This document shows positions 26,431 to 45,505 of a stretch of DNA of 64,000 nucleotides, one piece after another. Numbering within the stretch: position 1 is the first letter of the stretch; each line of letters starts with the position of its first letter. The position numbers were made by a program, and so were the translations under genes. The notes beneath the pieces were generated by a model that saw only the letters and a list, made by a program, of their open reading frames with translations, was not told where the DNA came from and did not search any database. This DNA comes from Candidatus Latescibacterota bacterium (GTDB lineage Bacteria; Latescibacterota; UBA2968; GCA-2709665), in assembly GCA_965226795.1 (NCBI GenBank), contig CBDDDZ010000005.1, positions 960,001 through 1,024,000 on the forward strand, in the 5' to 3' direction.

Positions 26431-26432
26431 AT
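26413..26432. promoter_or_regulatory. Perfect palindrome, candidate operator upstream of the HTH-helicase
   Basis: ATCACAAGA-TT-TCTTGTGAT, about 180 bp upstream of ATG 26615. Confidence 0.45.
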
Positions 26433-26614: not shown

Positions 26615-29600
26615 ATGTCAACCGTTATGTCAAACGTGGTGCCAGAAGATTGTGCTTCGCGGATCAAGAGCGGGAGGGGCGTCAGGGGGCTGACCCAAAC
26701 GCAATTCGCCAATCTGATCGGTGTCTCCTTTGCGTCCGTGAATCGTTGGGAAAATGGGCAGTCTCGGCCGAATAATCTGGCCTGGAAGCGGATTGCCGAA
26801 CTCGAGCGGCAGTGGACAAGTTCCCGGGATGACGGTCAGTACGATTCATCGACGATGCCGACCACGGCGCCGATCCTTGATTTCGCTGGTGACCCGAACG
26901 CCGTTTCCGTCCTTGCAGAGGCGCATCGTCTGGCGTCAGGTCATCTCTTCAACCCCACGTTCGCCACCGAAACCTCGTCAATAGATCCACTTCCGCATCA
27001 ACGCATCGCCGTCTATGAGACGATGATGCAACAGGCCCCTCTGCGATTCCTGCTGGCCGACGATGCGGGTGCCGGAAAGACAATCATGACTGGTCTGTAC
27101 GTGCGCGAAATGTTGTCGCGGGGATTGATACGTCGCGTCTTGATTGTGCCTCCCGCCGGTCTGGTGGGCAATTGGGAGCGGGAGATGCGGACGCTGTTTC
27201 GCCTCCAGTTCCGAATCGTCCACGGCGCGGACGCCCGATCAGGCAATCCTTTCGCTGGACCGGATAGCGACCTCGTCATCGTCAGTGTCGATACGCTGGC
27301 AGGAAAAGGGATGTTTGCACATCTCCGAAACCAGGATACGGACGGTTATGACCTGGTTGTTTTCGACGAAGCTCACAAGCTGTCAGCCCACAGGGAACCG
27401 GGTTACCGGGTGCGGAGGACGGACCGGTACAGACTCGCCGAAGCAATTGCTGCCGCTGAATCCGATAATTCCGCCTGGACGCTTCCCTGGTCTGCCCAGC
27501 ATCTGCTGCTTCTGACGGCAACGCCGCATATGGGGAAGGACTATCCGTACTTCGCTCTCTGGCGCCTGCTGCTTCCGGAAACACTCACGACCCAGGACGC
27601 CTTCGACGAGTTTTCGCCTGATTCCCGATCCAAACACTTTCTCCGTCGGACGAAAGAGGAGATGGTCCATTTTGACGGATCCGCGTTGTATCCACAGAGG
27701 AACTGCGATACCCTGAGCTACGTTCTTTCGCAGGGTCCGGGGAGCGAGCAGGAACTGTACGACGAGACCACTGATTACATCAGGTATTTCTACAACCGAG
27801 CCAGACAGCTGAACCGTTCCGCCGCACGGCTGGCGATGAGCGTGTTCCAGCGGCGACTGGCGAGTTCCACGTACGCGTTAATGCGTTCCTTCGAGCGCCG
27901 CGAAGAGAAACTGGCCGCTTTGATCGACGCAATACGCGATGGAAGCGTAACCGAGAAACAGCTTACTCGTGAACAGCGGAAGCTGGATGTTCTCGACGAT
28001 GCATTTGAAACGCGGACCTTTGACGAGGACACGGATGATGCACAAGAGGGAGACGAGGCGTTCGAAAGCCAGGCGTTGGGTGGCACCGTGGCTGTCAGCC
28101 TTAGCGAACTCGAGGATGAACGTCAAAGGGTCGAGGGGCTACTGAGCAAGGCACGCCAGAGACTCGAAGCGGGCGAGGAATCGAAATTCGAAAAGCTCCG
28201 CGAGGTGCTCCGGGATCCCAGTTACGCAAATGAGAAATTCATTATCTTCACGGAGCACCGGGACACCGCCGTCTTTCTGGTACGTCGACTTGAGGGTCTC
28301 GGATTTACGGGGCGTGTCGCGATGATTCATGGTGGCCTGCCGTACCCGGAGCGCGAGAGACAGGTGGAGTTCTTCCGCCGCTCCGCTAACGAAGGCGGTG
28401 CCAGCTACCTGGTAGCGACTGACGCGGCTGGCGAGGGCATCAATCTCCAATTCTGCTGGCTGATGGTGAATTACGACATACCCTGGAATCCGGCCCGGCT
28501 TGAACAGCGGATGGGGCGGATTCACCGCTACGGCCAAAAGCACGATCCGGTGATCATTGTCAATCTCCTCGCCGGCGGGACCCGCGAGGGGCGGGTTTTG
28601 AAAACCCTGCTCGACAAGCTGGAGGTGATGCGTCGCCAGCTTCAATCTGACAAGGTTTTCGACGTGGTCGGACGGCTCTTTTCGGAAGTATCCATACGGG
28701 AATATCTTGAGCAGGCGGTCACTGAAGATCCCGGAACCGCCGCCGCGCGACTGGTGGGCGATCTTACTGCGGAGCAGGTCCAGGCGCTCGAACAAAAGGA
28801 ACGCTCGCTCTTTGGCGATGGGGGCGACGTGCGCCGCCAGCTTGCCCGTCTCAATGAAGAGGCAGAGAAGGAAACCTTTCGCAGGCTCCTGCCCGGATAT
28901 GTTCGCCGTTTCGTGGCTAAGGCCGCGACCCTGCTCGACCTGCGGGTGGATGGCGACCTGGAAGAAACCTTCGCCTTGGTTCCCGATCGCGTGCGGGCTG
29001 CCGATCCCCTGTTATCTGCACTTGACGTGTATCCCGAGACAGCGCAGGGCCGGCTCACGGTCTACAAGCCCACCAGCCGGGAGGAAGTCGTGTGGTTGCA
29101 TCCGGGAGAACCGGTCTTCGACGCTATCTCCGCATCGATTATAGGTCGGTACGGACGCGAGGGTCTCCGGGGGTCGGTGTTTATCGACCCAGAAGCGTCC
29201 GTACCCTATCTGTTTCACATCGCGAGAATATCCGTCGAAGAGTACAGCCAGGTCGCCACCGTGGGTGCGGGCGAAACGACCGATGGGGATGGGCGCCAGG
29301 TAAAGGCCTCAAGACTCATCGATTCCAGACTGGTCGGGCTACGGCAATCGGCCGAGGGTACGGTGGAGGAGTCACCGGTGGAACGTCTCCTTCTTTTGCG
29401 AGAAGCGAAAGACTTTCCGCCGGGCCGCGTACCACTCGCGGCGGCGGCTCGGGGTCTCCTTTCCGATGCCGAACGGTCTGCGCGTGAGGACATACTGGAG
29501 TCCCTATTGCAACATTATCAACAGAGTCGTATCGCCGATCTGCCGGCTCACATCGACTTCGTCAGCCGCGGATTCGACTATGAGGCCGCCGAACTCGCCG

Positions 29601-30220
29601 CCGCTCGGTCGCGCCTTACCCACGTGGCTCGGGCCGGCGACAAAAAGGCGAATGCGAGACTGAGCGACGTCAAGGCGCGACAGCGGCGCCAGGCGGCAAC
29701 CCGTGCTCGCCGGCTGGCCCAACTGTCGGCCGAGTCAGACCTTGTTCGGGCCGGCGAGGTCGAATTCCTGGTTCATGCGCTCGTCGTTCCAGTAAGGGAT
29801 AGCGAAGACGCAAAACGCTACGATGCCGACGTCGAAGCGATCGCCGTGGCGGTCGCTGTCGATTTCGAAGAGAACTCCGACGCTGTGGTTAAGGATGTAT
29901 CCAAGCCCGAACTCGCCCGGCGCGCCGGACTGCCCGACTGGCCGGGATTTGATCTTCTCTCCGTCGGAGCCGACGGAGAACGCCGCCGGATAGAAGTCAA
30001 GGGTCGCGCCGGAACCGGAAGTGTAGAGATGAGAGAGAACGAGTGGGCTAACGCCTGCATCCACAGGGAAGAATACTGGCTATACGTCGTTTTCGACTGC
30101 GCGTCGTCGAGACCACGCCTGGTCAGGGTGCGGGATCCCTTTTCCAAACTGCTTGTCCGGGGACGCGAGTCTATGGCCCATACCATCACGGCTGGCGAAG
30201 TATTAAAGGCGGCTGTGTAG
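26615..30220 (+). CDS. XRE-HTH / SNF2-type helicase / DUF3883 (PD-(D/E)xK) nuclease fusion
   Basis: GLTQTQFANLIGVSFASVNRWENG HTH; LADDAGAGKT, DEAH, TATPH, AAGEGINLQ, EQRMGRIHRYGQ; C-terminal GFDLLS..IEVKG..NEW..YWLYVV. Confidence 0.92.
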   Translation: MSTVMSNVVPEDCASRIKSGRGVRGLTQTQFANLIGVSFASVNRWENGQSRPNNLAWKRIAELERQWTSSRDDGQYDSSTMPTTAPILDFAGDPNAVSVLAEAHRLASGHLFNPTFATETSSIDPLPHQRIAVYETMMQQAPLRFLLADDAGAGKTIMTGLYVREMLSRGLIRRVLIVPPAGLVGNWEREMRTLFRLQFRIVHGADARSGNPFAGPDSDLVIVSVDTLAGKGMFAHLRNQDTDGYDLVVFDEAHKLSAHREPGYRVRRTDRYRLAEAIAAAESDNSAWTLPWSAQHLLLLTATPHMGKDYPYFALWRLLLPETLTTQDAFDEFSPDSRSKHFLRRTKEEMVHFDGSALYPQRNCDTLSYVLSQGPGSEQELYDETTDYIRYFYNRARQLNRSAARLAMSVFQRRLASSTYALMRSFERREEKLAALIDAIRDGSVTEKQLTREQRKLDVLDDAFETRTFDEDTDDAQEGDEAFESQALGGTVAVSLSELEDERQRVEGLLSKARQRLEAGEESKFEKLREVLRDPSYANEKFIIFTEHRDTAVFLVRRLEGLGFTGRVAMIHGGLPYPERERQVEFFRRSANEGGASYLVATDAAGEGINLQFCWLMVNYDIPWNPARLEQRMGRIHRYGQKHDPVIIVNLLAGGTREGRVLKTLLDKLEVMRRQLQSDKVFDVVGRLFSEVSIREYLEQAVTEDPGTAAARLVGDLTAEQVQALEQKERSLFGDGGDVRRQLARLNEEAEKETFRRLLPGYVRRFVAKAATLLDLRVDGDLEETFALVPDRVRAADPLLSALDVYPETAQGRLTVYKPTSREEVVWLHPGEPVFDAISASIIGRYGREGLRGSVFIDPEASVPYLFHIARISVEEYSQVATVGAGETTDGDGRQVKASRLIDSRLVGLRQSAEGTVEESPVERLLLLREAKDFPPGRVPLAAAARGLLSDAERSAREDILESLLQHYQQSRIADLPAHIDFVSRGFDYEAAELAAARSRLTHVARAGDKKANARLSDVKARQRRQAATRARRLAQLSAESDLVRAGEVEFLVHALVVPVRDSEDAKRYDADVEAIAVAVAVDFEENSDAVVKDVSKPELARRAGLPDWPGFDLLSVGADGERRRIEVKGRAGTGSVEMRENEWANACIHREEYWLYVVFDCASSRPRLVRVRDPFSKLLVRGRESMAHTITAGEVLKAAV

Positions 30221-30230
30221 TTTTCCGGAG

Positions 30231-31034
30231 ATGGATGTAGGAACAAATTCTGACCACTCAAAGTCGGGAAATCCTGATATGAAACCCGGTGAGAAAGATT
30301 ATCAGGCGTTAAATCAATATTCTGAAACTCGTTACAAAGAGTTATCGGGATTGCTCAAACCATACGTCGCAATAACCGACGCATTTGGAAAGCTGGTATG
30401 CCGCATCAGCATCTGCCTCGGCATCACGCCACCTACGGATACTCAGGATTCTGTGGTCAGAGATCTTATGGCTGATGTTTTCGATTTTCTCTTCGAATCC
30501 AGAGCCATGATTCTGCAGGGTAAAATCCAAATTGCCTATGTGCTGGCACGCAGAGCCTATGAATCGCTTTCGCTGTTGTCACTTTGTGCCCAAGACTCAG
30601 AATATGCAGATAAGTGGGAATCAGGTAAGAAGATTTTTAATAAAGAGGTGAGGAAGCAACTCGAAAAGCAACCATTCAGCGAATCAGCGGACCGAACACA
30701 AGAGCTATATAGTTTCTTTAGCAAGGTGGCGCACCCCAATAGAGACTTAGTTGCCCATCGCTACCTTGGGCAGGGCAACCGTTTCGTCTTCGGTTCAATA
30801 GGAAAGCCGGATCTTGTTTTTATCGCTGATTTCTGCTATAGGCACCTACAGCTTTGGTTTTGGTTTGGTGCCCTAGCGGGTTATAGACATCACGTGCTTC
30901 TGGATAAGCACGATCCAGATTTCATAAAGGAATATTTCCTCGCCACAGATCAAGCAGAAGAGATAGCCGAGTGGTTGGCAAAACAGTTCAATCGTCTGCT
31001 CAAAGAAGCCCAGGAAAACCTGGCAACGACATGA
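30231..31034 (+). CDS. Hypothetical protein, HEPN/DUF5677-like; alternative start 30279
   Basis: Helical-looking AT-rich ORF with ARRAYE and LYSFFSKVAHP, matching the R-x-x-E / Y-x-x-x-S-x-x-x-H pattern. Confidence 0.55.
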   Translation: MDVGTNSDHSKSGNPDMKPGEKDYQALNQYSETRYKELSGLLKPYVAITDAFGKLVCRISICLGITPPTDTQDSVVRDLMADVFDFLFESRAMILQGKIQIAYVLARRAYESLSLLSLCAQDSEYADKWESGKKIFNKEVRKQLEKQPFSESADRTQELYSFFSKVAHPNRDLVAHRYLGQGNRFVFGSIGKPDLVFIADFCYRHLQLWFWFGALAGYRHHVLLDKHDPDFIKEYFLATDQAEEIAEWLAKQFNRLLKEAQENLATT

Positions 31035-31297
31035 AGAGTGCCGCATAAACCATTCGCGAACTAGGTATGACACCAGTCAGCTATCAGGGTGGCAAGTTAC
31101 GGTCCCCCAAAAGCTGTGACGAATGACGAAGTGCTTTGGACGCATAAGTGAAAGCAATTCTCGGGCATCAAACGTCTGTAAGATCGCGGCATTAGTGGTT
31201 AGTTGATTCCGGCAATTTGGATATCCAAGTACAGGTACTTCAACGGCTGCGCCGGATGTTACCGGCAGAGCCATGATGCGTTGACTCGAATGTGTAA

Positions 31298-32668
31298 ATG
31301 TCATACTTGACCGAAATGAAAGTTGTGCGCGATCACATCTTTATCAGTTACGCGACTGAACAGTCCGCGCTTTGCGACTGGCTTGCCCGTCGACTTGCTG
31401 CCGAAGGGTACGCTATATGGTGCGACCGCCAGAAGCTGCTTGGCGGTGAGAACTGGCCCAACGACATCGATGCGGCGATTAATGAGCGAACTTTCCGTAT
31501 GCTTGCGCTGCTATCCCGGGCATCTATGAACAAGCAGAATCCGCAAGGAGAGTGGCTGAAAGGTAATGCAATCGGAAAAAAGCTGGGCATTGTCGACTTC
31601 GTTATACCGTTGAATACGGAAGGGCTCCGACCGGACGAAATCACCTGGAATCTGCAACCCATCAACTACATTCCGTTTACGCCGAGTTGGGCCGAAGGAT
31701 TAGCGGCGCTGCTGAAGAAACTCACTTCCTTGGACGCACCCCGGTCATTAAGGGACGGTCCGCGGATTGCCGTGGGGTCAATGGTCGCAAACAGCACGAT
31801 TCGAGATGAATCCGAAATTCTGGTAAGTAACTGCTTCGAGATTGTGCAGACACCACGATACATTCGGAAGTATACATCTGAGACAAATCTCTCCCCGGCC
31901 GAGCGCCGTGTATTACGGAAAGAATGGGCATGTCGCGATTTGTCGCCGACTCTCGTGATTGCCTTTGACGATCCGACCTCGACGGTGAAAGAGAGATATA
32001 GTTTTTCGTACGTCAATCAGGTTTCATGGCGTGATACACCGTTCATAAATGGAATTAAAGCAAGAGACCTTGTGGTTAACCTGGTACATAAATCTCTCCA
32101 TCGTCTGCTGGAAGGGCGGGGATTGAAGTACAGCGACGGAAGGAGGCAATGGTATATTCCGCCTGGCCTTCTAGCGGAAGATAACCTAACCTTCACGTCT
32201 CCTGACGGTAAGAAACGTTGGTTCAAGGCGGTCAGTGAACGTACATTTCATTCACGAAACGGAGGAGAGGTATACCGATACCACCTTAGCCCATCGTTAT
32301 CGCTGCTGCGCGATCAAACTGATCCATTTGTGCTATTTCTTCGAAACAGGGTTTATTTTACCGATACAAATGGCAAACCCTTAGATGAACGCAAGATTGT
32401 ATCGCGCCGCAAACATCTATGCAAAGCATGGTTTAACTACGAGTGGTGGGCGCGTACTCTTGGCGTAGCACAGCTACTCGCCGATGAAGATATGTACATC
32501 CGTTTCGGGCCGGAGGGAGAGCAGCAACTCGTCATCAATGCAGTACCCATTTCCTTAGATGTTTCCAAAGGTATCGACGATGATCATGTTGACGAATCTG
32601 ATGGGTATTGCACCACTTGGCTTGAGGGGGTCGGGTTGGAAGTTGATATTGTCTCGGTAATTGAGTGA
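31298..32668 (+). CDS. TIR-APAZ protein (SPARTA-type NADase effector)
   Basis: N-terminal TIR: IFISYA, WLARRL..GY.IWCD, catalytic Glu in QGEW, FVIPL, SWAEGL; C-terminal APAZ-like RRKHLCKAWFNYEW; directly upstream of a short pAgo. Confidence 0.9.
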   Translation: MSYLTEMKVVRDHIFISYATEQSALCDWLARRLAAEGYAIWCDRQKLLGGENWPNDIDAAINERTFRMLALLSRASMNKQNPQGEWLKGNAIGKKLGIVDFVIPLNTEGLRPDEITWNLQPINYIPFTPSWAEGLAALLKKLTSLDAPRSLRDGPRIAVGSMVANSTIRDESEILVSNCFEIVQTPRYIRKYTSETNLSPAERRVLRKEWACRDLSPTLVIAFDDPTSTVKERYSFSYVNQVSWRDTPFINGIKARDLVVNLVHKSLHRLLEGRGLKYSDGRRQWYIPPGLLAEDNLTFTSPDGKKRWFKAVSERTFHSRNGGEVYRYHLSPSLSLLRDQTDPFVLFLRNRVYFTDTNGKPLDERKIVSRRKHLCKAWFNYEWWARTLGVAQLLADEDMYIRFGPEGEQQLVINAVPISLDVSKGIDDDHVDESDGYCTTWLEGVGLEVDIVSVIE

Positions 32669-32675
32669 GGATCCG

Positions 32676-34181
32676 ATGTTGAGGGATATTACAATTCTCG
32701 ATGAGCCAAAGTTAGAGTTTCGGTATGGGCAGCAGCTCGCCGATCCACGCGATGGACTTTCGTTATTCGGGCCTTACGGAGCCGACGCTCCGGGCCATCC
32801 CGGTGCCGTATCGTACGGCGTCGTTGGCACACCCGTAGGTATTGAGCTATTCTCCGCGTGGTCGCACGCGATGGTGTGTTCCTGGACAGATGCGCCGAAT
32901 GACCGTCGTCGGCTATGGCCACCGTACCCTGGATTTGAGGCAGCGTTCGCCAGCGTCTGGCGTAGCAAACCAGTATGGAAGAAGGCGTTGGAAAGTGATG
33001 AGCTGAGTGACTTCGCCAATCGCCATGATCCCTACGAACGGGTCTATTCCGTCGCAAACCAATATCTTTCAGCTGTTAAGGATTTAGAAAAGTTAGATGA
33101 GCGTGTGAGCGTCATGGTCTGCGTGGTTCCCGACGAAGTCTACAAAACATGCAGGATAAAATCGCGCGCGATCCAGCCGACAGGAGAGGTCGTTTCTAAG
33201 GTCAGACGCGACTCCCGCAAGAAACGACAACTTGAGCTATTCTCGAAGTACGCGCCGGAGCAGTACGACCTCTCGCTGGATTTTCGAAGACAGATCAAGG
33301 CAAGGACAATGGCGCATGGTGTTCCGATTCAGATTGTACGTGAATCGACGCTGAGGCTTAATGACGAGAATCCTTTTGGTTCACGGCAGCTTACACCGCT
33401 TTCACATAGAATGTGGAATCTCGCCACTACACTGTTTTATAAGGGAGGCGGTAAGCCATGGAGGCTTGCTACGGCCAGGGAAGGTGTGTGCTATGTCGGC
33501 CTTGCTTTTCGTCGGTCCGATACCCAAGACGGACCCAAGAGCGCAGCCTGCGCCGCACAGATGTTCCTTGACGATGGCGACGGTGTGGTATTCTTGGGCA
33601 ACTATGGGCCGTGGTATTCACCAGAAAAAAAACAGTTCCGCCTCACTCGTAAAGCTGCCCACGATCTGATAAAGGGCGCTCTTGATACGTACAACCAGCT
33701 ACACGGAAAAAGGCTGACCGAAGTCTTTCTGCATTCACGGTCTGATATCAATGCTGAGGAATTCGAGGGATATCGATCTGCTGCACCCGAAGGGTTGAAG
33801 GTCGTTGGCATTCGCGTGCGTCCGAATCACGACGGACCGCGATTGTACCGGCCGGACAAGAAGTGGCCGGTGATCCGGGGAACGCTGTGGCAGCATTCCC
33901 CAACGAGAGGATATCTGTTTGGATCTGGCTTCAAACCAAGGCTCGGAACCTACGATGGATGGGAGACGCCCGCACCGCTTCAAATTGACATTCAACATGG
34001 TGATGCGGATGTCGTTGATGTGGCACGCGATATTCTCGGTCTTACAAAGCTCAACTATAACGCATGTAACGCCGGTGACACCCAGCCGGTTACTGTCAAA
34101 TTCTCTGATGCCGTGGGCGAAATACTTGTAAGCAACCCGACCGTGACCGACCGACAACCCACTTTCAGGTTTTACATCTAA
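32676..34181 (+). CDS. Short prokaryotic Argonaute (MID-PIWI, no catalytic tetrad)
   Basis: DEPKLEF, DPRDGLSLFGP, FRRQIKA, PIQIVREST, YKGGGKPW, CYVGL, CAAQMFLDDGDGVVF, DILGLTKLNYNAC, PVTVKFSDAVGEIL, C-terminal FRFYI; GAGG RBS before ATG 32676. Confidence 0.95.
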   Translation: MLRDITILDEPKLEFRYGQQLADPRDGLSLFGPYGADAPGHPGAVSYGVVGTPVGIELFSAWSHAMVCSWTDAPNDRRRLWPPYPGFEAAFASVWRSKPVWKKALESDELSDFANRHDPYERVYSVANQYLSAVKDLEKLDERVSVMVCVVPDEVYKTCRIKSRAIQPTGEVVSKVRRDSRKKRQLELFSKYAPEQYDLSLDFRRQIKARTMAHGVPIQIVRESTLRLNDENPFGSRQLTPLSHRMWNLATTLFYKGGGKPWRLATAREGVCYVGLAFRRSDTQDGPKSAACAAQMFLDDGDGVVFLGNYGPWYSPEKKQFRLTRKAAHDLIKGALDTYNQLHGKRLTEVFLHSRSDINAEEFEGYRSAAPEGLKVVGIRVRPNHDGPRLYRPDKKWPVIRGTLWQHSPTRGYLFGSGFKPRLGTYDGWETPAPLQIDIQHGDADVVDVARDILGLTKLNYNACNAGDTQPVTVKFSDAVGEILVSNPTVTDRQPTFRFYI

Positions 34182-34199
34182 GAGAGGCACAGTAGTAGG

Positions 34200-37100
34200 A
34201 TGACTAAAGAAAATTCCGACAAACGCCTAATCGAAGTCGCCTTTCCGCTGAAACAGGTCTCGCTCGACTCTGTCCACGAGAAAAACGTGCGGCACGGGCA
34301 TATCTCCACGCTTCACATCTGGCCGGCGAGGAGGCCGTTAGCTGCGTGCCGCGCGGCCCTGATCGCGACGTTGCTTCCCGATCCAGGTGATGCGGACACG
34401 CGAAACGAGATCTTGGAGCGTATGGCTGGCCGCATAATTGAGAAGATCGACCGCAAGCGCGTGAACGGCCGTTTGGTTGAAAAGGTCAAGGAGGAAACGC
34501 TTGGCGGCATCCTTCACTGGAAGCGGGAAAACGACCCGAATCTCGCCTGGTTTCGCGAAGAGATCCGCAAGGCGTATGGTGGTCGGGCGCCCAAGGTATT
34601 GGACCCGTTCGCCGGTGGCGGCGCCATTCCCCTCGAAGCGATGCGCCTTGGGTGCGACGTGACGGCCATGGACATCAACCCGGTCGCTTGGTTCATCCTT
34701 AAGTGTACACTCGAGTACCCCCAAAAGCTCGTCGGTCAGACCCGCCCGCTTCCCGGCTTCGCGCTGGAGGACGCCGAATTCATGGAGGCATTCCTGAAGG
34801 CGAAAGGGTTTAAGGGTGCGAGCTTGCGGACGTTTCTGGAGCGCCTCGGCCACGGCGATGGCGGCGAAATCCAGCTCAATGCCCTGGCCCGCAACGACGC
34901 TACGCTCAAAGCGGACCTCGCCTGGCACGTGCGCGCCTGGGGCCGCTGGGTGCTGGCAAGGGCGCGCAAGGAACTGGCTTCGTATTATCCGACCTATGCT
35001 GAGTTCGAGCCGCTGGAGCCGGGCAGAAAGTTCGAGCCGCACCCCATTCGGCTGCTGGAGATCGATGATAACGGGATTCCGCAACTCAATCCGCTCAATG
35101 TCGAATTCGACGACGCCTATCTCAAGGATCCGCGCAACCCGCGCTGGGTCGCCAAACCGACCGTGGCGTATCTCTGGGCGCGGACCGTGACCTGCAAACA
35201 GTGCCGCGCAACGTTGCCGCTGCTCAAGACGCGCTGGTTGTGCAAGAAGGACCACAAGCGGGTGCTGCTGACGATGGAGCCGATGACCGACCAGACCGGC
35301 CGGCCGGCCGAGCACGGCACGGCGCAGGCAGGCGTTGTCTTCGGCGTGCAGTGCGACATCCCGAAAAACGGCGGCAACTCGGCGCAACGGCGGGAGTACG
35401 ACAAACGCATTGGAACGGGCACTATGTCGCGTACCGGCGCATCCTGCCCGTGCTGTGGCGCGATTATGACTATGGCGGACATCCGTTTCGAAGGCCGCGC
35501 CGGTCGGTTGGGCGCGACCATGACGGCTGTGGTGGTGGATGGGCCGAAGGGCAAGGGCAAGGGCAAGGAATACCGCTTGCCCACGGACCCTGAGCGTGCG
35601 GTTGCGGAAGTGCCCGAGGAACAGCTTCAGGCGCTCTATGCGGACATCCCGTTTGGGTTGCCGGAGGAACAGACGCCCAAGGCAGGAATCGGTGCGTCGC
35701 GTGCTTTTTCAGTGGACGGCTATGGCTTTGATACTTGGCGGAAACTGTTTACGAATCGGCAGCTATTGGCGGTTGGAGGGTTCGTTCTGATCCTTAGGAG
35801 ACTGATGCAAGAACTCAAAAATTGGCCGGAGAGTTGGTCCGAGGCGCTGATTGCAAATCTTGCACTCGTGAACGACCGGCTGGCCGACTACTCCAGCGCG
35901 ATTTGCTCTTGGCACAATAGTGGTGAGAAGCTTAGAAATACGTTTGGTCGCTTTGCTCTGCCTATCGTTTGGGATTATACCGAAGTCAATCCGTTGTCGG
36001 ATACCTCCGGCAACTTCCTCGGTGCGCTTGAATGGGTTTCCAAGGTGTGCGAGCATTTGCAAAAAAGCGTCGATTCAGCCCGAAGCGGAGAGAGCATTTG
36101 TGCATCAGCCATCACCTGCCCAACCAATAGTGTCGATCTTATCTTAACCGATCCTCCCTACTACGACGCGATCCCCTATTCCGATCTGATGGACTTCTTC
36201 TATGTCTGGCTGAGGCGCTCGATACCGGGATTATCTGTCGAGGTTGAGGCGGTTTTCTCCGATGCCCTTGGCCCCAAATGGGATCATGACGAAGATGATG
36301 GCGAGCTCATAGACGACGCCAGCCGATTTGGCGGCGACAAAGAGCGGTCCCGGCAGAATTATGAAGAAGGAATGGCCCGCGCATTCTGCTCTTGTCACGC
36401 TGCGTTGCGGCCTCACGGGCGGCTTGTGGTCGTGTTCGCCAACAAGCTTCCCGATGCCTGGGAGACGTTGGTAGCCGCTTTGATCCGTGCCGGTTTCGTC
36501 GTTGACGGCTCCTGGCCCATCCAGACGGAGATGATTAACCGCAACCGAGCAATTGCCTCCGCCGCGTTGTCATCATCCGTCTGGATAGTCTGCAAGAAAC
36601 GGTCCGCCATCCGCCCTGGATGGGACAATAATGTGCTCAAAGAAATGCGAGAGAATATCACCCAGAAGCTTCGAGATTTCTGGGACGCCGGAATCCGCGG
36701 GCCAGACTTCGTATGGGCTGCGACCGGCCCGGCTCTCGAAGCCTTTAGCAAGCACCCCGTGGTGAAGAAGGCAAACGATCCTAACCAACTGATGACGGTG
36801 TCGGAGTTCCTGCGCGAAGTGCGCCGCATGGTTGTGGATTTCGTCGTCGGGCGCGTATTGACACAGGTACCGGGTCAGGAGGCTGCGACCGGCCTCGACG
36901 ACGTGAGCACCTATTACCTGCTCCATCGTCACGACTTCGGCATGTATGAAGCACCCGTTGGCGCCTGCATTCTTTATGCACTGTCGTGTAACCTCTCCGA
37001 TACGGCCCTCGTCAATCAACACGATCTCCTTGCGAAGTCGGGCAAGGGGGGAGGGAGCGACGAACTTGAGGAAGACGACTCGTCCGAAGACGTCGAAGAG

Positions 37101-37445: not shown

Positions 37446-37613
37446 TCAATTGCTTTCCGTACACGGCCCAGCGTGTTCCCTCTTTGCAGAAATTTTCGGA
37501 TTTGACCCGAAAGAGACTCCGATGAAGTAGGGTTTTTTGTCGACTTGTATAACAACAGACATTGGAAGGGTTTGGTCACGAACCGAACTCAAACTTGATC
37601 CGAGGATCCTAGC

Positions 37614-39713
37614 ATGAATCATCGCAAGCAAATCTCAGGCAATTTACTCGGTTCAACTCGCGCTGAAGCCGATATGCGCATGCTGGAAGAGGCCTTTGTA
37701 GAGACCAGCGACTATCTTGCCCTAAAAAATACGGACGACTTCAATTTCATTGTCGGACGTCGTGGCACAGGCAAGACCGCGCTTTACCTCAGGCTCATAT
37801 CTGCATTTTCTCAAGATAAACGATCATTTATGCACTGTGTGAAGCCCCAAGAGCACGATTCGCTCATGGTCTTGGGACTGATTCGCAAACTTGGTCTTAG
37901 TACATACGAGTCCGTTCGCTCTACGTCGAGAGTATTATGGAGAGTGTCGCTGCTATTCTCCGTGGCCGTCGATCTTTGCGGTCACTGGAAGTTCAAGGGT
38001 ACTCAAGAATGTGGAATTCTCAATGGATATCTCGCGAAGCGAAAACACCTGCGGAGACTCGGTGAACTTCAACGGTGTCACGGTATACTAAATGATCTGT
38101 CACCCTCTTTCAATCTGCCAGAGGAGTTACCGGCGCTCATCGCTTCCAAATTTGAAATGAGCACACTGGAGGCAGCAGTCAGGAAAGGATTGGATACCAC
38201 TGGTTCAAAATCAGTCTTTCTGTTCGATGGCCTTGATGAAGGCTGGGGTACCGATACCCTCTCAATTGGAATTCTTGGCGGCCTAGCAATCACGATCTCC
38301 GGTTTTCAGGACGCCGCCCTACCCATACATGGCGAGGTTTTTGTTCGTGACAACATATTCAGATCATTGGCGGCCCAAGATAGTGACTACTCCCGACACA
38401 TTGAGGGTAACACCCTGCGCCTTCACTGGGACGAAGACTCCTTGTTTAATTTTATCACAAACCGGTTACGCATCGTGCTTAATTTACAAGACGTAGAGAG
38501 TAATGTCCGCGTATGGAATCGATTCGCTCACAGGAATGTAAGAGATAGAGAGGGGTTTTATCGCTGTCTCCGGCACACATTGTACAGACCGAGAGACCTG
38601 TTGGTGCTGCTAAACAGCGCAATCGTCAGGGCCAACCGCGCGGGGCGAAGAGAGATCATTGAGGACGACATCCAAAGTACATCGAAGCAAGTGTCGATGG
38701 ATAGACTGGCAGATTTGAAAAAAGAATATGAAGGTGTTTTTCCCGGCTCGAGCATCGTAACTGATTCCCTTGTTGGAGGTGAAGCCTTCCAGACGCTACG
38801 TTACATAACAAATGGTCTTCAAAGTTTGGTTGACGGATTGGACTATTCCCAGCCACAATCTGGGGACATCGCGCTATTGGGCAATGGATCTCAGGTACTG
38901 GACGCTCTATACAGCATCGGACTCTTGGGACTGGTCGAGCCTGCGACGAGCGCTGTTAGATTCTGTCATGACGGGGCACGCTCCATTATCTCGGACTTGC
39001 CCGAGGACAGGTACATCGCGATGCACCCCTGTTACTGGAAGGCCTTGGATATTCGCGCGGGTGAAATTTCCACAGATGTTCTCGTGGAGATTCACGACGA
39101 TTACGAAGTGCGGGCTACCGGCACTGTCCCCGCACTGAGAGCGCGTCGGCTTGGCCGGTTGGTTTCGGACCTGTCAGATATTCCTCTCGGTTCCGGCGGA
39201 GCATCTGGCTTTGAAGATTGGATGTTGCGAACCTGCCGCATCCTGTTTTCGGGGTACCTGAGCAACTTTGAACTTCACCCAGCTAGCGATGGTGTGCAGC
39301 GTCGAGATGTGGTTGCTACGAACAATGCCGAGAGCGGATTTTGGAAGCGTGTACTTGACGACTATGGATCCCGGCAGGTAGTTTTCGAGGTGAAGAACTA
39401 TGAAGACCTTAAGATTGATGACTTCCGGCAATCTCTGTCTTATTCGGGTCGACAGTACGGAAGATTAGTGATTATTGTTCACCGTAGCGAGTCGGAAGCG
39501 TTGAACCAGAGAGCGAGAGGGTGGGTCAAAGAGTTCTGGGACCAACATAACACTCTTGTAATGACTATTCCGTCTGTGGTGCTTGTAAGATGTATACAAA
39601 AAACTCGGAGTCCCAAAAACAGAAAGCGTAGCTATGTTGATCGTAATCTTGGCAAACGCCTTGATACATTTGAGCGTAGTTACGTGGTGCTGCGCCATAT
39701 CAGGCGGTCTTGA
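37614..39713 (+). CDS. P-loop ATPase fused to a C-terminal restriction-endonuclease-like domain
   Basis: GRRGTGKT Walker A, FLFDGLDE Walker B, RPRD; C-terminal FEDW..RRDVV..FEVKNY (E..D..ExK). Confidence 0.8.
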   Translation: MNHRKQISGNLLGSTRAEADMRMLEEAFVETSDYLALKNTDDFNFIVGRRGTGKTALYLRLISAFSQDKRSFMHCVKPQEHDSLMVLGLIRKLGLSTYESVRSTSRVLWRVSLLFSVAVDLCGHWKFKGTQECGILNGYLAKRKHLRRLGELQRCHGILNDLSPSFNLPEELPALIASKFEMSTLEAAVRKGLDTTGSKSVFLFDGLDEGWGTDTLSIGILGGLAITISGFQDAALPIHGEVFVRDNIFRSLAAQDSDYSRHIEGNTLRLHWDEDSLFNFITNRLRIVLNLQDVESNVRVWNRFAHRNVRDREGFYRCLRHTLYRPRDLLVLLNSAIVRANRAGRREIIEDDIQSTSKQVSMDRLADLKKEYEGVFPGSSIVTDSLVGGEAFQTLRYITNGLQSLVDGLDYSQPQSGDIALLGNGSQVLDALYSIGLLGLVEPATSAVRFCHDGARSIISDLPEDRYIAMHPCYWKALDIRAGEISTDVLVEIHDDYEVRATGTVPALRARRLGRLVSDLSDIPLGSGGASGFEDWMLRTCRILFSGYLSNFELHPASDGVQRRDVVATNNAESGFWKRVLDDYGSRQVVFEVKNYEDLKIDDFRQSLSYSGRQYGRLVIIVHRSESEALNQRARGWVKEFWDQHNTLVMTIPSVVLVRCIQKTRSPKNRKRSYVDRNLGKRLDTFERSYVVLRHIRRS

Positions 39714-40131
39714 ACTAAAGTGACCAGGTGAGTCGGACAGCCATTACGTCCTACATGCCACTATATGGTGAGTTATATCCTCATCCGAGTTTTCGGGTGG
39801 TATTTGGGACGAAGTGCAAAACACGAGATAGCGGCGAGAACGGATATCGGTGATTACGGCACTGAGAAGGCCTTCGTTGCAGAGGTGTATTGGCAATCCC
39901 AAATCTCAACCGTGCAGAACTCTCACTTCCAAAACGATACTGATTGTCTGACTTTGAAAATAGGCAAGTCAGCTCCCTGACGACAAGACTGTTCCTGCAC
40001 TCCTTATAAATAGCGAGGACGCAATTGCAATAGCAGTGTCCTGGTTACCACCTTATGTGGTTGTGAAACAACGAAAAACATCCAGGATTCTTTACATCAC
40101 TTCTTAGTCAAGTTCGAGCGAGGACTCAGAA

Positions 40132-41451
40132 ATGCCCAGGATAGAGGGTTTCAGAGTTAGAAACTTCAAGGTGCTCAGGGATGTTTCGTTGGGACGGCTT
40201 TGGAACCAACAACGAACCAGACCATTAACCCCTATGACCGCAGCAATCGGAAAAAACGGTGTGGGGAAGAGTGCTCTCTTCGACGCATTTGGGTTTTTAG
40301 CAGATGCACTCAAATCCGGCGTCGAAGAGGCGTGCGACGCACGGGGACGTGGCGGATTCGAGAAGGTGCGGTCGCAGGGTGAAACAGGCCCTATTGAGTT
40401 CGAAGTGTATTACAGACAACACGGCAACGCACGGCCGATTACCTACGAAATTGCAATTAAGGCGGACGAGTCTGGCCGCCCTTACGTAGTGCGGGAACGT
40501 CTTAGGCAAAGACGAAGAAACCAGAGATACGGCCGTCCATTCTCATTCTTGTGGCTGGAGGCAGGCAACGGCGTGGCGTGGAAAGGCGAGGAGGGGTATC
40601 AGAAGGAAGACCTTGAGTCGTTGCTTGAGAAAGCTCTCGAGCAGGATGACGTTGAGGCGAGGTTGTCGATGGTGAGGGAATTTATGGAATTGATGCGGAA
40701 GGAGGAACCGAACGATACAGAGCGCATTGAATTAAAAGATCCGCGCAGACTCGGGATAGCGACACTCGGCGCCTTGAAACAACATCCGCGAATTTCTGCG
40801 TTTAGCCAGTTTATTGAGGGATGGTATCTTAGCTACTTCACGCCGGATGCTGCTCGGAGCCTTCCCCTGGCCGGTCCCCAGAGCCGGCTCAGTATCCATG
40901 GAGACAACCTCGGAAACGTCGTTCAATTCATGGAGCGTGAACATCCGAAGCGATTCGAGACGATACTAGAAAAGATCGCAAACAAAATCCCGGGTATAGA
41001 CCGGATCGACACGGAAAGATCCAAAGACGGTCGGGTGCTGCTCCGATTCAACGACAAGGGCTTTCAGGATCCATTTTACGCACAACAAATGTCCGATGGA
41101 ACTCTTAAGATCTTTGCCTATTTGTTGCTCCTTGAAGATCCCAGTCCGCCTCCGTTTATATGTATCGAAGAGCCGGAAAATGGTCTCTATCACAAGTTGC
41201 TTGAGACGCTTGCCCACGAATTCCGCCAACACGCCAGCGGATCCGCGACCGGTTCGCAGGTCTTTGTTACCACACACCAACCCTATTTCATCGATGCTCT
41301 AGACCCAAGTGAAGTTTGGATTCTGGGAAAGGGAAGGGACGGTTTTTCAACAATTCGCAGGGCGAGCGACGATCCGATCGTCAACAATATGGTCGAGGAG
41401 GGCCTGCCCCTGGGCGGCCTCTGGTATAGCGACTATTTGGACGCGAGGTGA
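40132..41451 (+). CDS. ABC-type ATPase (AAA_21-like)
   Basis: NFKVL, GKNGVGKS, MSDGT signature, ICIEEPENGL, VTTH. Confidence 0.9.
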   Translation: MPRIEGFRVRNFKVLRDVSLGRLWNQQRTRPLTPMTAAIGKNGVGKSALFDAFGFLADALKSGVEEACDARGRGGFEKVRSQGETGPIEFEVYYRQHGNARPITYEIAIKADESGRPYVVRERLRQRRRNQRYGRPFSFLWLEAGNGVAWKGEEGYQKEDLESLLEKALEQDDVEARLSMVREFMELMRKEEPNDTERIELKDPRRLGIATLGALKQHPRISAFSQFIEGWYLSYFTPDAARSLPLAGPQSRLSIHGDNLGNVVQFMEREHPKRFETILEKIANKIPGIDRIDTERSKDGRVLLRFNDKGFQDPFYAQQMSDGTLKIFAYLLLLEDPSPPPFICIEEPENGLYHKLLETLAHEFRQHASGSATGSQVFVTTHQPYFIDALDPSEVWILGKGRDGFSTIRRASDDPIVNNMVEEGLPLGGLWYSDYLDAR

Positions 41452-41455
41452 TCGG

Positions 41456-42106
41456 ATGCACTTTGATATACTCGTCGAAGACGCGTCTGGCAAGACGGTC
41501 CTAGATATTTTGATTCCTAAGATCATCGGGGATCAAGATACATTCAGAGTTACCAGTTACAAAGGAATTGGCCATATTCCCAGAAATCTGAAGAGTGGAG
41601 CCGATGCGTCAAAACGCATTTTGCTTGGCCAACTACCCAAGTTGCTCAGGGGGTATGGAAAGACATATGCCGGTTACGGCGCGGACTATCCTGCGGCGGT
41701 AATTTTAGTTTGCGACCTGGACAATGAGTGCCTGAAGACGTTTCGGCAGCGACTCTTCGCTGTCCTCAAGGCCTGCAACCCCAGACCGGAAACCCGGTTC
41801 TGTATTGCCATTGAAGAAAGTGAAGCATGGCTGCTCGGCGACATTTCCGCGGTGAGGGCAGCATATCCGAGACTCAAGGACAACGTGCTGAGTGGTTACA
41901 AAAATGACTCGATTTGCGGCACATGGGAGCTTCTGGCCGATGCCGTCTACACCGGTGGCTCGAGTGCACTCGAGGGTCAGGGCTGGCGGTCAGTTGGCAG
42001 GGAGAAATCTGCATGGTCCGAGAAAATCGCGCCTCTGATGGATGTGGACAACAACGCGTCGCCCAGTTTCCGTTACTTTCGAGAGAAGCTTCGTGAGCTT
42101 ACCTGA
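41456..42106 (+). CDS. DUF4276 family (TOPRIM-like) protein
   Basis: ILVEDAS, VCDLD, AIEESEAWLLGD, NASPSF; starts 4 bp after the ATPase stop. Confidence 0.8.
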   Translation: MHFDILVEDASGKTVLDILIPKIIGDQDTFRVTSYKGIGHIPRNLKSGADASKRILLGQLPKLLRGYGKTYAGYGADYPAAVILVCDLDNECLKTFRQRLFAVLKACNPRPETRFCIAIEESEAWLLGDISAVRAAYPRLKDNVLSGYKNDSICGTWELLADAVYTGGSSALEGQGWRSVGREKSAWSEKIAPLMDVDNNASPSFRYFREKLRELT

Positions 42107-42178
42107 GTATCCAGTCCGAGCCCACATGGTGGCAATTGATCGTTTTTTCTCACATAGACAACAGTTCGGCGGAATGAG

Positions 42179-45100
42179 GTGACTATGGCAATCAAATCTT
42201 CCCACAGACCCTGGCACGAAATAGTGCAGCTACGCGACGACCTGAGAACCGGGGAACTCTCGCTGGCCATATTCGCTGCCGATCTGTACGATGTGGTGAT
42301 GCAGAAGGGTAGGAGACAGGTGTACGAGCGCCCAGAAGATTTCTTCGCCCTGACGTATCCGACTTTAAATCTTCGTGAACTGGTCAAGGACGTCGCGACA
42401 CGGTTGGCCGGCCAGAGCGACAAGGCCTATCGGAAACTGTCGATAAATTACGGCGGTGGCAAGACCCACACACTCATCGCGCTCCGGCATCTCGCGCACG
42501 ATCCGGACAACTTGCCGGACCTGCCGGCGGTCAGGGATTTTGATGCGCACATCGGGTTCAGGATGCCAAAGGCCCGCGTGGCGGCGCTATGCTTTGACAA
42601 GATCGACCTCGAAAAGGGTGTCGAGACGCTGGGCCCCGGCGGCGAGATCAGAATGCTCAAGAACCCGTGGAGCATCCTCGCGTTCCAACTGGCGGGGACA
42701 GACGGCCTCCGACTCATTCACGCCGACGGCGAGGACGAAGAGCGCGACACGCCCCCGGCCGAACCGTTAGTGGTGGAACTTCTGTCAAAGCCGCAAGCGG
42801 AGGGGCTCTCGACGCTGGTGCTGATTGACGAAGTGCTGATGTATATCCGTACGCTGGTTGAAGCGCATCCGGATTCGCGAGGACGCTTGATCAGCTTCTT
42901 CCAATATCTAACCCAGGCCGTGGTTAAAGTGGACCGCTGTGCAATGGTGGCCTCACTTCTCGCCTCGGATCCGAGGAAGCACGACGAATTTGGAAATGAA
43001 CTCCTGCGGGACGTAGCCGACGTCTTCGGCCGCCAGATGGAAGAGGATGCAAGCCCGGTAAGCAAGGAGGACGTGGCGGAGGTGCTGCGGCGTCGATTCT
43101 TTAAACCAGAATCCATCCGCAACACAGGCGAATTCCGTCCGATTGTCACTTCCATAGTCGGCAGTATTGCGGCGATGGACGAGAATACGAGGAAGGAGCG
43201 CGCAGCAGCCGAGGAACGATTCCTTTCCAGTTATCCCTTCCACCCTGACCTCACGGAGGTCTTCTACACCCGATGGACTCAACTCGAAGGGTTTCAGCGC
43301 ACCCGTGGTATCCTGCGTACGTTTGCCATTGGCCTGCGCGATGCCGAGAAGTGGGATACGAGTCCGCTTGTCGGGCCGAATATTCTGCTGGCCGATCGAG
43401 AAAAGGACGGTCTCGCCGAAGCCGCGAGTGAACTCGCTTCCTTTGCCAGCGTCGACACGGCTACGGGTAAGCATCAGGAATGGCGGCCGATCCTCGAAGG
43501 CGAGTTGGCGAAGGCGCGCGCCATCCAGGCCGAGTCGACTGGCCTCAGCCATCGGGAGATGGAACAGGCTGTTATAGCCGTATTCCTGAGTTCTCAGCCC
43601 ATTGGTCACAAGGCACTTACCCGAGAAATCATGGTGCTTGTTGGAGCAGCCAATCCGGATAAGATTGAATTGGAGAAGGCTCTGCGTCGCTGGATCGAGG
43701 TGTCGTGGTTTCTCGACGAATCAGAGGTCGCCACAGGAGATAACGGATCGGAGGGGCAATTGCCCATGGCATGGCGGTTGGGTAATCGTCCCAACCTGCG
43801 CCAAATGCACCACGATGCCTGCAGCAATCGTGTATCTCAGTCTCTCGTAGAGGCGCAAGTGATCGATGCGATCGAGAAACAGCGTTCGCTTACCTCCGGT
43901 GCGTCCGCAGCCGGCGCAACGGTGCATAACCTTCCCGAGAGACCTCGAGACATCGGGGACGACGGAAAGTTCCACTACGCTGTGCTTGGCCCGGACATGT
44001 CGTCGGAGTCGGGCAAACCTAGTACCGCAGCCAGGCGGTTCATCGACGAGACGACTGCCCCCGACCGCCCGCGTGTGAATCGCAACGCAATCGTCCTCGC
44101 CGCTCCTTCCAGGGACGGTCTCGATGCCGCTCGCGTTCGCGTTCGAGAGTATCTCGGCTGGATGGAGGTAGGTGAGCAACTTAAGGGCCAGCCAATCGAC
44201 CCGATTCGAGAACAGATGCTCTCGAGCGAGACCGAAGCGGCGCGAAGGCGGATCCCGGAGGCCGTCAGGCAGGCCTATTCCATTGTTGTTACGGTGAACG
44301 AAAGCAACGATGTCCATGCCTTCAAGGTCGTCGTGACTGAAGAACCGCTGTTCACGACCATAAAGGCCGACAGGCGAGCCCGCATCCAGGAGACGCCCAT
44401 CAACTCCGAGGCAATGATGCCCGGAGGCCCCTATGACTTGTGGAGGGAAGACGAACCGTCACGTCGGGTAAAGGATCTTGTCGGAGCCTTCGCCCAGTTT
44501 GCAAAATTGCCGAAAATGCTGCGGCAGAAGGAAATTTCCGATACCGTAGTACATGGCGTTCAGGAAGGGATATGGGTGGCACAGGTAACCCGCCCCGACA
44601 GGACCATCAGGACTTTCTGGCGGACGCCAATCGACGAGACTGCCATACAAGATCCGGGCCTTGAAGTGTTTCTGCCGGAAGCGGCCACGTTAAGTGAACT
44701 CGTTCCAGACCTGCTCGTGCACAAAAAACTCCCTGGGCTCTGGTCGTCCGATGAACTCGCGGTGCAGGATGTTTATGACTATTTCTCGGGTGGCCACACA
44801 GTAGTCGTACAAAGGGAGGGTTACGAAGAAACAGTTATGATCCCTAAATGTGACTCAATGGATGTCGAAGCCGCCATTTCTCAAGGCGTTGAGCAGGGTC
44901 TGTTGTGGTTGACGAACGGGCCGGCCTCGATTCTCGAAGAAGCCGTGCCGCCTGGAGTACTCACCTCGTCGGCCGTGCTAAGGCCGCCGCCGGAAGGAAT
45001 CGACGTTGCTCAATTGATGCCGCCTTCGATTCCGAGCGCATGGGTAGAAGGCAAGGCCAACGCGCTTGCCATCGCCACCGCGCTTTCTGCTCAGTGGGCA

Positions 45101-45505
45101 AGGACCCTGCCCTGGTCGACGGTCGAAGCAGTGATCGATGCTGGTATACGAGCGCGATGGATTGAGGTCGGCACTGACAGCGCGCCCTGGCCAAGCGGCA
45201 TCGGCAACGCACAACACGTAATCCTGCAAATTCCGTTGCCGGGAGGTGTGGGCGACGCCGACGGGAGGCCATATGGCAGCGGAGATGAACCAAAGGGAGT
45301 GCTCCGTGCCGAAGCTGCACTTGAAGCCAATGGTATCCAGGACCTGGCTGATCAGATTCCGGAAATTACCAAAGCCGCTGTGGGTAATGATCTTAAATTC
45401 AAAGTCCGAATTGACTTCGGAGGAGAAAAGTCTCCCGATCTGGAGGCGGTGAAAAAGATTAACGAACTGCTTTCTGATGTGTCGGACTCATTCAAGCTTG
45501 AATGA
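42179..45505 (+). CDS. DUF499 domain AAA+ ATPase
   Basis: FAADL, FFALTYPT, YGGGKTH Walker A, LVLIDE Walker B, LRRRFF, SYPFHP, FQRTRGILR. Confidence 0.9.
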   Translation: MTMAIKSSHRPWHEIVQLRDDLRTGELSLAIFAADLYDVVMQKGRRQVYERPEDFFALTYPTLNLRELVKDVATRLAGQSDKAYRKLSINYGGGKTHTLIALRHLAHDPDNLPDLPAVRDFDAHIGFRMPKARVAALCFDKIDLEKGVETLGPGGEIRMLKNPWSILAFQLAGTDGLRLIHADGEDEERDTPPAEPLVVELLSKPQAEGLSTLVLIDEVLMYIRTLVEAHPDSRGRLISFFQYLTQAVVKVDRCAMVASLLASDPRKHDEFGNELLRDVADVFGRQMEEDASPVSKEDVAEVLRRRFFKPESIRNTGEFRPIVTSIVGSIAAMDENTRKERAAAEERFLSSYPFHPDLTEVFYTRWTQLEGFQRTRGILRTFAIGLRDAEKWDTSPLVGPNILLADREKDGLAEAASELASFASVDTATGKHQEWRPILEGELAKARAIQAESTGLSHREMEQAVIAVFLSSQPIGHKALTREIMVLVGAANPDKIELEKALRRWIEVSWFLDESEVATGDNGSEGQLPMAWRLGNRPNLRQMHHDACSNRVSQSLVEAQVIDAIEKQRSLTSGASAAGATVHNLPERPRDIGDDGKFHYAVLGPDMSSESGKPSTAARRFIDETTAPDRPRVNRNAIVLAAPSRDGLDAARVRVREYLGWMEVGEQLKGQPIDPIREQMLSSETEAARRRIPEAVRQAYSIVVTVNESNDVHAFKVVVTEEPLFTTIKADRRARIQETPINSEAMMPGGPYDLWREDEPSRRVKDLVGAFAQFAKLPKMLRQKEISDTVVHGVQEGIWVAQVTRPDRTIRTFWRTPIDETAIQDPGLEVFLPEAATLSELVPDLLVHKKLPGLWSSDELAVQDVYDYFSGGHTVVVQREGYEETVMIPKCDSMDVEAAISQGVEQGLLWLTNGPASILEEAVPPGVLTSSAVLRPPPEGIDVAQLMPPSIPSAWVEGKANALAIATALSAQWARTLPWSTVEAVIDAGIRARWIEVGTDSAPWPSGIGNAQHVILQIPLPGGVGDADGRPYGSGDEPKGVLRAEAALEANGIQDLADQIPEITKAAVGNDLKFKVRIDFGGEKSPDLEAVKKINELLSDVSDSFKLE

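Follow-up and report, generated by a model that had tools for sequence, protein, structure and literature searches.

SPARTA and other cargo embedded in a divergent Hma operon of a Candidatus Latescibacterota bacterium

Nine open reading frames (ORFs), all on the + strand, span positions 26615–45505 of a 64,000-nucleotide stretch of a Candidatus Latescibacterota genome (assembly GCA_965226795.1, contig CBDDDZ010000005.1, positions 960,001 to 1,024,000), referred to here as the window. Three of them encode a helicase, a methyltransferase and a DUF499 protein, and these are separated by six other genes, including a TIR-APAZ gene and a short prokaryotic Argonaute (pAgo) gene of the SPARTA type. 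Does this arrangement represent one machine, or a scaffold with slots in which unrelated defence modules are lodged? An earlier note, made from the letters of the sequence alone, had correctly described this gene order on one strand and proposed a scaffold of the second kind as an undescribed system. On the basis of its predicted proteins, the locus is identified here as an Hma (helicase-methylase-ATPase, BREX-related) defence operon, and the two spaces between its core genes contain four self-contained modules, which probably provide additive, independent layers of defence rather than forming a single machine. Below, G numbers denote phylum genomes (G000 being that of the window) and L numbers the individual loci compared.

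The Hma core and the modules between its genes

The best PADLOC matches of the three core genes are HmaA (E=1.9e-159, residues 88–1178), HmaB (E=6.4e-113) and HmaC (E=3.4e-76, from residue 9), in this order and on one strand. The product of hmaA (26615–30220, + strand) combines an XRE-type helix-turn-helix (HTH) domain (Pfam HTH_3, residues 24–62) with SNF2 and Helicase_C domains and a C-terminal NOV_C nuclease of the PD-(D/E)xK type, and its Walker A (position 149), DEAH (251) and D1113/E1127/K1129 motifs are intact. The hmaB gene (34200–37445, +) encodes a DUF1156 amino-methyltransferase, predicted to act on N6-adenine, with the motifs DPFAGGG at 135 and DPPY at 651 (motifs I and IV), and hmaC (42179–45505, +) encodes a DUF499 AAA+ ATPase with Walker motifs A (position 90) and B (213) and no N-terminal HEPN domain. 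Across the nine ORFs, Pfam recognizes SNF2/Helicase_C/NOV_C, TIR_2, DUF1156, AAA_21, DUF4276 and DUF499. Each core gene is present once and intact, and three genes are embedded in each gap, in agreement with the definition of Hma (core genes on the same strand, at most three embedded genes per gap) in the main text of Payne 2024 (bioRxiv 10.1101/2024.01.29.577857).

The operon is a divergent copy, scoring 530, 376 and 255 bits against the PADLOC models for HmaA, HmaB and HmaC, versus 1594, 1523 and 1106 bits for another, canonical Hma elsewhere in this genome (contig C2, about 155000–184500; L188, L189). The two HmaA proteins are 32% identical. The second system has its own cargo and carries two full hmaB copies in tandem. 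In L055 (about 8900–9600) and G150, a 0.7–0.8 kb insertion splits hmaB at about codon 371–379; in L055 it is in frame and yields a 1350-aa ORF.

All six cargo genes are richer in AT than all three core genes, as the earlier note had observed: their GC contents of 46–53% fall between the 0.5th and 7.7th percentiles of the 3,074 ORFs of the genome, versus 58–60% (32nd–54th percentile) for the core. The intergenic gaps are, in order, 10, 263, 7, 18, 168, 418, 4 and 72 bp. The tight junctions attributed to the operon exist at some joints (10, 7, 18 and 4 bp, the 18-bp joint between the pAgo and methyltransferase genes being exactly as described) and not at the gaps of 263, 168 and 418 bp, for which no match to any relative was found.

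The first gene of slot 1 (30231–31034, +) encodes an all-helical protein of an unnamed family, with no match in Pfam, PADLOC or NCBIfam. Three of the four closest of its 294 homologues are 251 aa long, so a start at the ATG at 30279, 58 bp after hmaA, fits and is probable; the 10-bp gap reported between helicase gene and cargo is there, and holds only if the first ATG of the ORF is used. In an alignment of 110 family members, H152-P153 is invariant, no conserved arginine of the HEPN catalytic motif (RxxxxH or Rx4-6H) was found 5–7 residues ahead of H152, and 11 of the 110 have a weak match to DUF5677. The structural model (pLDDT confidence score 92.9) has HEPN domains among its top folds (2hsb, Z 10.3, root-mean-square deviation 2.8, 119 residues aligned; 4nqf, Z 10.0; 3o10, Z 9.1). 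These Z scores of 9–10.3 are tied with those of unrelated helical bundles, level with G protein-coupled receptor bundles and below the helical-bundle threshold of about 13; a Foldseek search with the 251-aa model gave nothing at E<=0.001. Judged on its model, the 251/267-aa protein is HEPN-like by fold only, and the name first proposed for it survives at that level, the RxxxxH motif being absent from the family.

The other two genes of slot 1 are 7 bp apart. The TIR-APAZ protein (31298–32668, +; PADLOC Aga_TIR-PNTD1-PNTD2, E=1.7e-74; Pfam TIR_2) matches TIR-APAZ chains in the PDB over residues 11–444 (E about 1e-22). In the alignment with chain 8qlo_A, its E85 falls opposite the glutamate of the GVLKE motif, a position that we take to be equivalent to the catalytic E77 of Map/Crt SPARTA. 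The pAgo gene (32676–34181, +; PADLOC pAgo_I, E=1.5e-170) encodes a short, MID-PIWI-only protein with full-length matches to SPARTA pAgo chains 8j8h, 8qlo and 8fex (E about 1e-100). This is the gene pair by which SPARTA is defined (Koopal 2022, PMC9097488), and the main text of that paper gives the catalytic role of TIR glutamate E77 in Map/Crt SPARTA and the depletion of NAD+ by Map/Crt, mainly against plasmids. The operon of TIR-APAZ and short pAgo, the full-length homology to solved chains and the retained TIR glutamate are common to both, whereas SPARTA is stand-alone in that description and the window lineage occupies slot 1 of an Hma, at a fixed place next to the start of hmaB. From its sequence, the slot 1 SPARTA looks intact.

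Slot 2 begins with a gene (37614–39713, +) for a 699-aa, Sll1717-family, ORC/Cdc6-like AAA+ ATPase. The protein scores 206.7 bits against NCBIfam NF047389 (Sll1717 ATPase), versus a cut-off of 75, falls in the Atlas cluster of the same name (0.99), and has a model (pLDDT 87.5) that matches Cdc6/Orc1 in Foldseek (E=1.6e-4). Walker A and B motifs are accompanied by conserved D565, E592 and K594, a D-x-E-x-K motif judged in 105 aligned sequences out of 463 homologues, and the ATPase is fused to a predicted PD-(D/E)xK nuclease. The remaining two genes, 4 bp apart, form the ABC ATPase and TOPRIM (DUF4276) pair of HEC-01: HEC-01A (40132–41451, +; PADLOC E=5.2e-192, whole profile covered) has Walker A, signature, Walker B and H-loop motifs, and HEC-01B (41456–42106, +; PADLOC E=1.7e-93; Pfam DUF4276) is a 216-aa TOPRIM-like nuclease with LVED and DLD motifs. 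Counts of HEC-01 across loci rest on HEC-01A, a close relative of which lies in slot 2 of 10 of 62 loci.

Turnover of cargo in related loci

Cargo has turned over at the same chromosomal site. Three genomes of the same genus (G003, G010 and G011) have core proteins with 77–89% amino acid identity, located at the same flanking genes, with other cargo between the core genes. Of the 62 loci compared, 56 allowed slot 1 to be measured, and 54 of these have it filled; for slot 2, the figure is 41 of 45. In a set of 46 loci, clustering of the 232 cargo ORFs gave 118 clusters, and the core strand carries 223 of the 232; the scaffold with variable slots is borne out by these loci. Representatives of 92 of the 118 clusters were scanned, leaving aside the six clusters of window cargo and 20 short or opposite-strand ORFs. 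Matches to PADLOC at E<=1e-40 were obtained for 25 of the 92, versus 2 of 88 flanking control ORFs, and this is the enrichment in defence genes that had been set beforehand as a test of the idea. Eight of the 25 matches are circular as evidence because the HEC and PDC models were built from embedded genes; without these models, 17 of the 92 representatives match.

The relatives' cargo recognized by PADLOC comprises CBASS, Avs2, type II restriction-modification (RM), long pAgo with a Cas4-like nuclease, AriAB-like, HEC and PDC genes, and the same core is also found with retron-unrelated ATPase pairs or an empty slot. The long pAgo (PADLOC pAgo_II) and Cas4-like nuclease lie in slot 1 of a related Hma (L022:3442-6748), and represent a second Argonaute type. 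On one public contig (depth 2.9), hmaB is joined directly to HEC-01A, the ATPase-nuclease gene being skipped. Such free exchange among close relatives speaks against tight biochemical coupling.

A pAgo match is present in 20 of 168 phylum genomes, seven of which, besides G000, have identities of 78–93%. All seven of these close SPARTA homologues lie directly upstream of hmaB or of a stub of its start. In six of the 29 close hmaB loci, the gap from hmaA to hmaB contains the TIR-APAZ as well as the pAgo gene, although the former is possibly interrupted in one (G028); elsewhere among the close hmaB loci, SPARTA lies at the edge of a contig in G123, and all that is left in G117 is the final 32 codons of pAgo. 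A quick tree of HmaB with 27 rows (G140 and G150 were left out for short matches) has SPARTA on 8 of 27 tips with 6 changes, a result equalled in 103 of 500 shuffles and thus showing no extra clustering; with this patchy distribution on the core tree, SPARTA behaves as exchangeable cargo. One of nine distant phylum loci fetched (G076, 39%) lies between canonical hmaB and hmaC, together with AbiE, and is likely to be an independent capture. Among 76 metagenome SPARTA loci, L073 (75%) is downstream of hmaA and L074 has the same downstream junction; no Hma gene was visible in the remaining 74, only 32 of which are at least 8 kb long. In L073, an 80-bp direct repeat (76% identity; 8503–8582 and 11596–11675) from the 3' end of the upstream gene lies on both sides of SPARTA, a scar pattern like that of the core-gene stubs described below, but with a cargo gene as the arm.

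The route by which cargo moves is suggested by G124 and G122, whose hmaA genes, together with the flank upstream, share 94% identity and whose hmaB genes share 93%. Most of slot 1 differs between them, and identity restarts at about codon 5 of hmaB. This pattern fits recombination through the core genes, in which the ribosome site, the start codon and the first few codons of hmaB would move with the upstream cargo. Cargo likely enters by homologous recombination, with the conserved core genes as arms.

Profiles of core-gene ends revealed second copies: the 5' end of hmaB is duplicated in slot 1 at 8 of 59 loci, its 3' end in slot 2 at 4 of 51, and the 3' end of hmaA at 4 of 56; no duplicate of the hmaC 5' end was found in 46 loci, and no true duplicate of seven internal core segments. 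Self-BLAST and DNA profiles found no copy of a core-gene end in the window slots, so the stub mechanism is visible in relatives only. The DNA upstream of a stub is the junction that lies upstream of full hmaB in a relative without the extra cassette (G029 versus G030 and G039; G124 versus G123), and one ABC-ATPase cassette follows an hmaB stub behind differing residents. From these comparisons, we infer that a stub may act as a second homology arm, so that cassettes could be added without replacing residents; the same scar would be expected from one-ended (homology-facilitated illegitimate) recombination or from integration of a circle, and several of the stubs are related by descent. Orphan hmaB 5' stubs, each followed by the same non-Hma gene, were observed in G119 (L162:4537-4644) and G126 (L234:6407-6495), and the ends of several stubs that look independent fall no more than a few bases from hmaB codons 37–39.

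The head of the operon and the surrounding DNA

An operator-like palindrome (consensus TATARCA-NN-TGYTATA, one mismatch) lies at 26528–26543 (+), 7 nt upstream of the -35 box of a predicted sigma-70-type promoter (GTGACA-17-TATATT; 26551–26579, +; 10/12 match) ahead of hmaA. It is the sole site with at most one mismatch in the 5.41-Mb genome, which has 12 sites with at most two, and the palindrome is found about 60–90 nt upstream of HTH-bearing hmaA genes in several phyla. With at most two mismatches, it is present in 37 of 44 loci with an HTH-bearing HmaA versus 0 of 9 HTH-less loci, a comparison weakened by the close kinship of eight of the nine, which share a truncated start and are not independent, and by the fact that the consensus was drawn from the loci on which it was scored. 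The XRE domain of HmaA likely binds this palindrome, its predicted site near the -35 box, and regulates the promoter at the head of the operon, from which part of the cargo may be transcribed as well. This logic resembles the C-protein control of RM systems. A perfect 20-bp palindrome farther upstream (26413–26432) was dropped as an operator candidate, as it is not conserved in relatives.

In a promoter scan of 26300–46200, the head promoter was the best match, but 11 sites were found versus 10.5 by chance; its -35 and -10 positions are conserved in relatives. No sigma-70 match was found in the gaps between genes (a weak test) and no intrinsic terminator was predicted in any + strand gap, promoter and terminator counts being at or below chance. 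Three metatranscriptome runs gave short contigs, at a depth of about 2–7, over core and cargo genes, with carry-over of DNA possible. None of the pieces listed bridges two genes; one covers the gap before the ATPase-nuclease gene and stops short of hmaB.

The host genome comprises 5.41 Mb in 5 contigs, with a GC content of about 58%. The nearest named relatives of its HmaB come from Candidatus Latescibacterota genomes, and parts of the window are present in sponge metagenome runs. A 307-bp direct repeat (75% identity; 26120–26426 and 51191–51497) contains the 3' part of ORF 25686–26321, which presumably encodes a protein resembling gamma-glutamylcyclotransferase, and the DNA downstream of that ORF. 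The repeat pair encloses hma and about 5.7 kb of further toxin-antitoxin, ABC and exonuclease genes, and may mark the ends of an island; in G003, a similar repeat lies immediately past hmaC. The downstream tail (45694–51074) starts with a short ORF near 45694, which we take to resemble an antitoxin gene, followed by a minimal nucleotidyltransferase (46112–46447), an HsdS fragment (46422–46784), a 580-aa ABC ATPase (47533–49275) and two exonucleases of the DEDDh type, of which one matches BRCT weakly. Short repeat families at the slot boundaries of the window were at chance level and were dropped. No tRNA was found near the locus, and an Rfam search of 25000–52000 gave no matches.

Published systems and alternative readings

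Embedded genes are reported in 931 of 1,485 Hma systems, 22.8% of the embedded genes being known defences and 96.7% co-oriented, in the main text of bioRxiv 10.1101/2024.01.29.577857, and insertions are reported in about 66.5% of hma loci in that of Liu 2024 (PMC11232893). The window agrees with the published Hma (PMC8565338; bioRxiv 10.1101/2024.01.29.577857) in its three co-oriented core genes, in having no more than three embedded genes in a gap, in defence cargo that shares the core's orientation and in HEC-01 in the hmaB-hmaC gap. It differs in belonging to a divergent subfamily in which HmaA begins with an XRE HTH, and in its SPARTA, HEPN-like protein and Sll1717 ATPase-nuclease, which are unnamed as cargo in the Payne main text. 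The Hma of Halomonas meridiana, as described in the main text of PMC11232893, likewise has an SNF2-NOV_C HmaA (with the same PD-(D/E)xK residues, mutated there), an insertion hotspot and an AAA_21 ATPase pair between hmaB and hmaC, whereas its cargo is Septu, PARIS, Ppl or GmrSD-like and an HTH or operator is unmentioned there. The idea of a scaffold with slots is, thus, correct but already published: the scaffold is Hma by PADLOC, its embedding of other genes has been described, and the ATPase/DUF4276 pair is HEC-01, so the label of undescribed system falls. The slots deserve mining for defence genes, as had been suggested, and this has already been done (bioRxiv 10.1101/2024.01.29.577857; PMC11232893).

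SPARTA or pAgo as Hma cargo is unnamed in the main texts of Payne 2024, Liu 2024, the BREX reports, Koopal 2022 and Payne 2021, the supplements of which may differ; within these main texts, the earlier claim that SPARTA inside this scaffold was undescribed holds. Table S7 of PMC11232893 has no Pfam Piwi entry; in its Sphingosinicella locus, hmaC is adjoined by a TIR_2 gene (about 459 codons) and a gene without a label (about 518 codons), which fit SPARTA by size alone. Word searches of the open-access literature found nothing describing SPARTA with Hma, duplication at defence hotspots, pglX shuffling in this sense, Hma autoregulation or the Sll1717 points made here.

Such loci have also been classed as Type-1 BREX-related, with a TUDOR-helicase-REase and many nested auxiliary nucleases (bioRxiv 10.1101/2025.10.09.681413; NAR gkag035, PMC12839542). 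Features shared with this DUF499-centred class, as its main texts present it, are the tripartite core, an active C-terminal restriction endonuclease (REase) on the helicase, a DUF1156 methyltransferase, the lack of PglZ and HKD (no match to either among 22 ORFs scanned, 23421–56563), and auxiliary nucleases and OLD-ABC pairs inside the locus. The helicase's N terminus is a TUDOR domain there and an XRE HTH here, where a short linker comes after HTH_3 and the match to the HmaA profile starts at residue 88, and the window HmaC bears no HEPN; by sequence, the locus is a variant of this class, not a textbook member. SPARTA in Hma, the XRE HTH with its palindrome and the duplications of core-gene ends go beyond the main texts cited here as modest additions.

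By analogy with related systems, HmaA would nick invading DNA via its C-terminal nuclease, adenine methylation of host DNA is the likely role of HmaB, and HmaC is likely to be an ATP-driven scaffold; in Halomonas, HmaA alone restricts T4 via its NOV_C nickase (PMC11232893). In SPARTA, the encounter of a guide RNA with foreign single-stranded DNA would lead to NAD+ depletion and cell death, and a role as sensor-nuclease or RNase effectors is predicted for HEC-01, the HEPN-like protein and the ATPase-nuclease. Three points weigh against additive layers in an RM-like operon. The position of the close SPARTA homologues is compatible with linkage, and would be with coupling as well; the RM-like role of HmaB is unproven because HmaB passage left the sensitivity of T4 to HmaA unchanged in Halomonas (PMC11232893); and HEC-01, one of nine Hma-embedded candidates tested, gave no protection in E. 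coli (bioRxiv 10.1101/2024.01.29.577857).

A bolder reading, put forward tentatively, is that this Hma subfamily is a self-regulated, self-expanding array, in which the XRE-palindrome pair would control core and cargo, core-end copies of about 100 bp would serve as second arms for integrase-free stacking, and the SPARTA lineage would be resident at the hmaB start. It is unlikely that the gaps are instead a neutral sink, tolerating insertions with their own promoters and much decay, without shared regulation or selection for the combination. The three long gaps do have room for promoters, the RNA contig before the ATPase-nuclease gene does not reach hmaB, and broken cargo is found in relatives (a split ATPase-nuclease gene in G011 as well as the pAgo remnant in G117), whereas all six cargo ORFs of the window are intact, with catalytic motifs, the relatives' cargo is co-oriented and defence-enriched rather than random, and sigma-70 matches are missing from the gaps. 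PrrC-type back-up, a genomic sink and co-regulation are all discussed for Hma in bioRxiv 10.1101/2024.01.29.577857, which describes PrrC as almost exclusively embedded and kept inactive by its host enzyme; the PrrC analogy of the earlier note is already drawn there. PrrC in EcoprrI is similarly nested between RM-like genes, but it is restrained by the host enzyme, whereas the window cargo is interchangeable and the comparative data lean against guarding. A single coupled, co-transcribed machine, in which cargo such as HEC-01 or SPARTA is restrained by or monitors the core and fires when a phage inhibits it, is the least probable reading, despite the constant place of the close SPARTA lineage, the recurrence of HEC-01A, the lack of predicted terminators and the sensing of anti-RM proteins by ABC-ATPase defences such as PrrC and PARIS (same preprint): relatives' cores carry quite different systems or nothing, SPARTA is described as stand-alone (PMC9097488) and has no visible Hma genes around it in 74 more distant metagenome relatives (32 of them at least 8 kb long), and HEC candidates were selected for occurring outside Hma too (same preprint).

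In an operon that probably carries independent layers, SPARTA and Hma form a natural pairing of anti-plasmid and anti-phage layers at one locus. Two of the cargo families, the HEPN-like protein of 251 aa and the Sll1717 ATPase-nuclease of 699 aa, have no defence label, and the HTH-operator pair and the duplicated gene ends provide leads, unexplored by Payne et al., on the entry and regulation of embedded genes.

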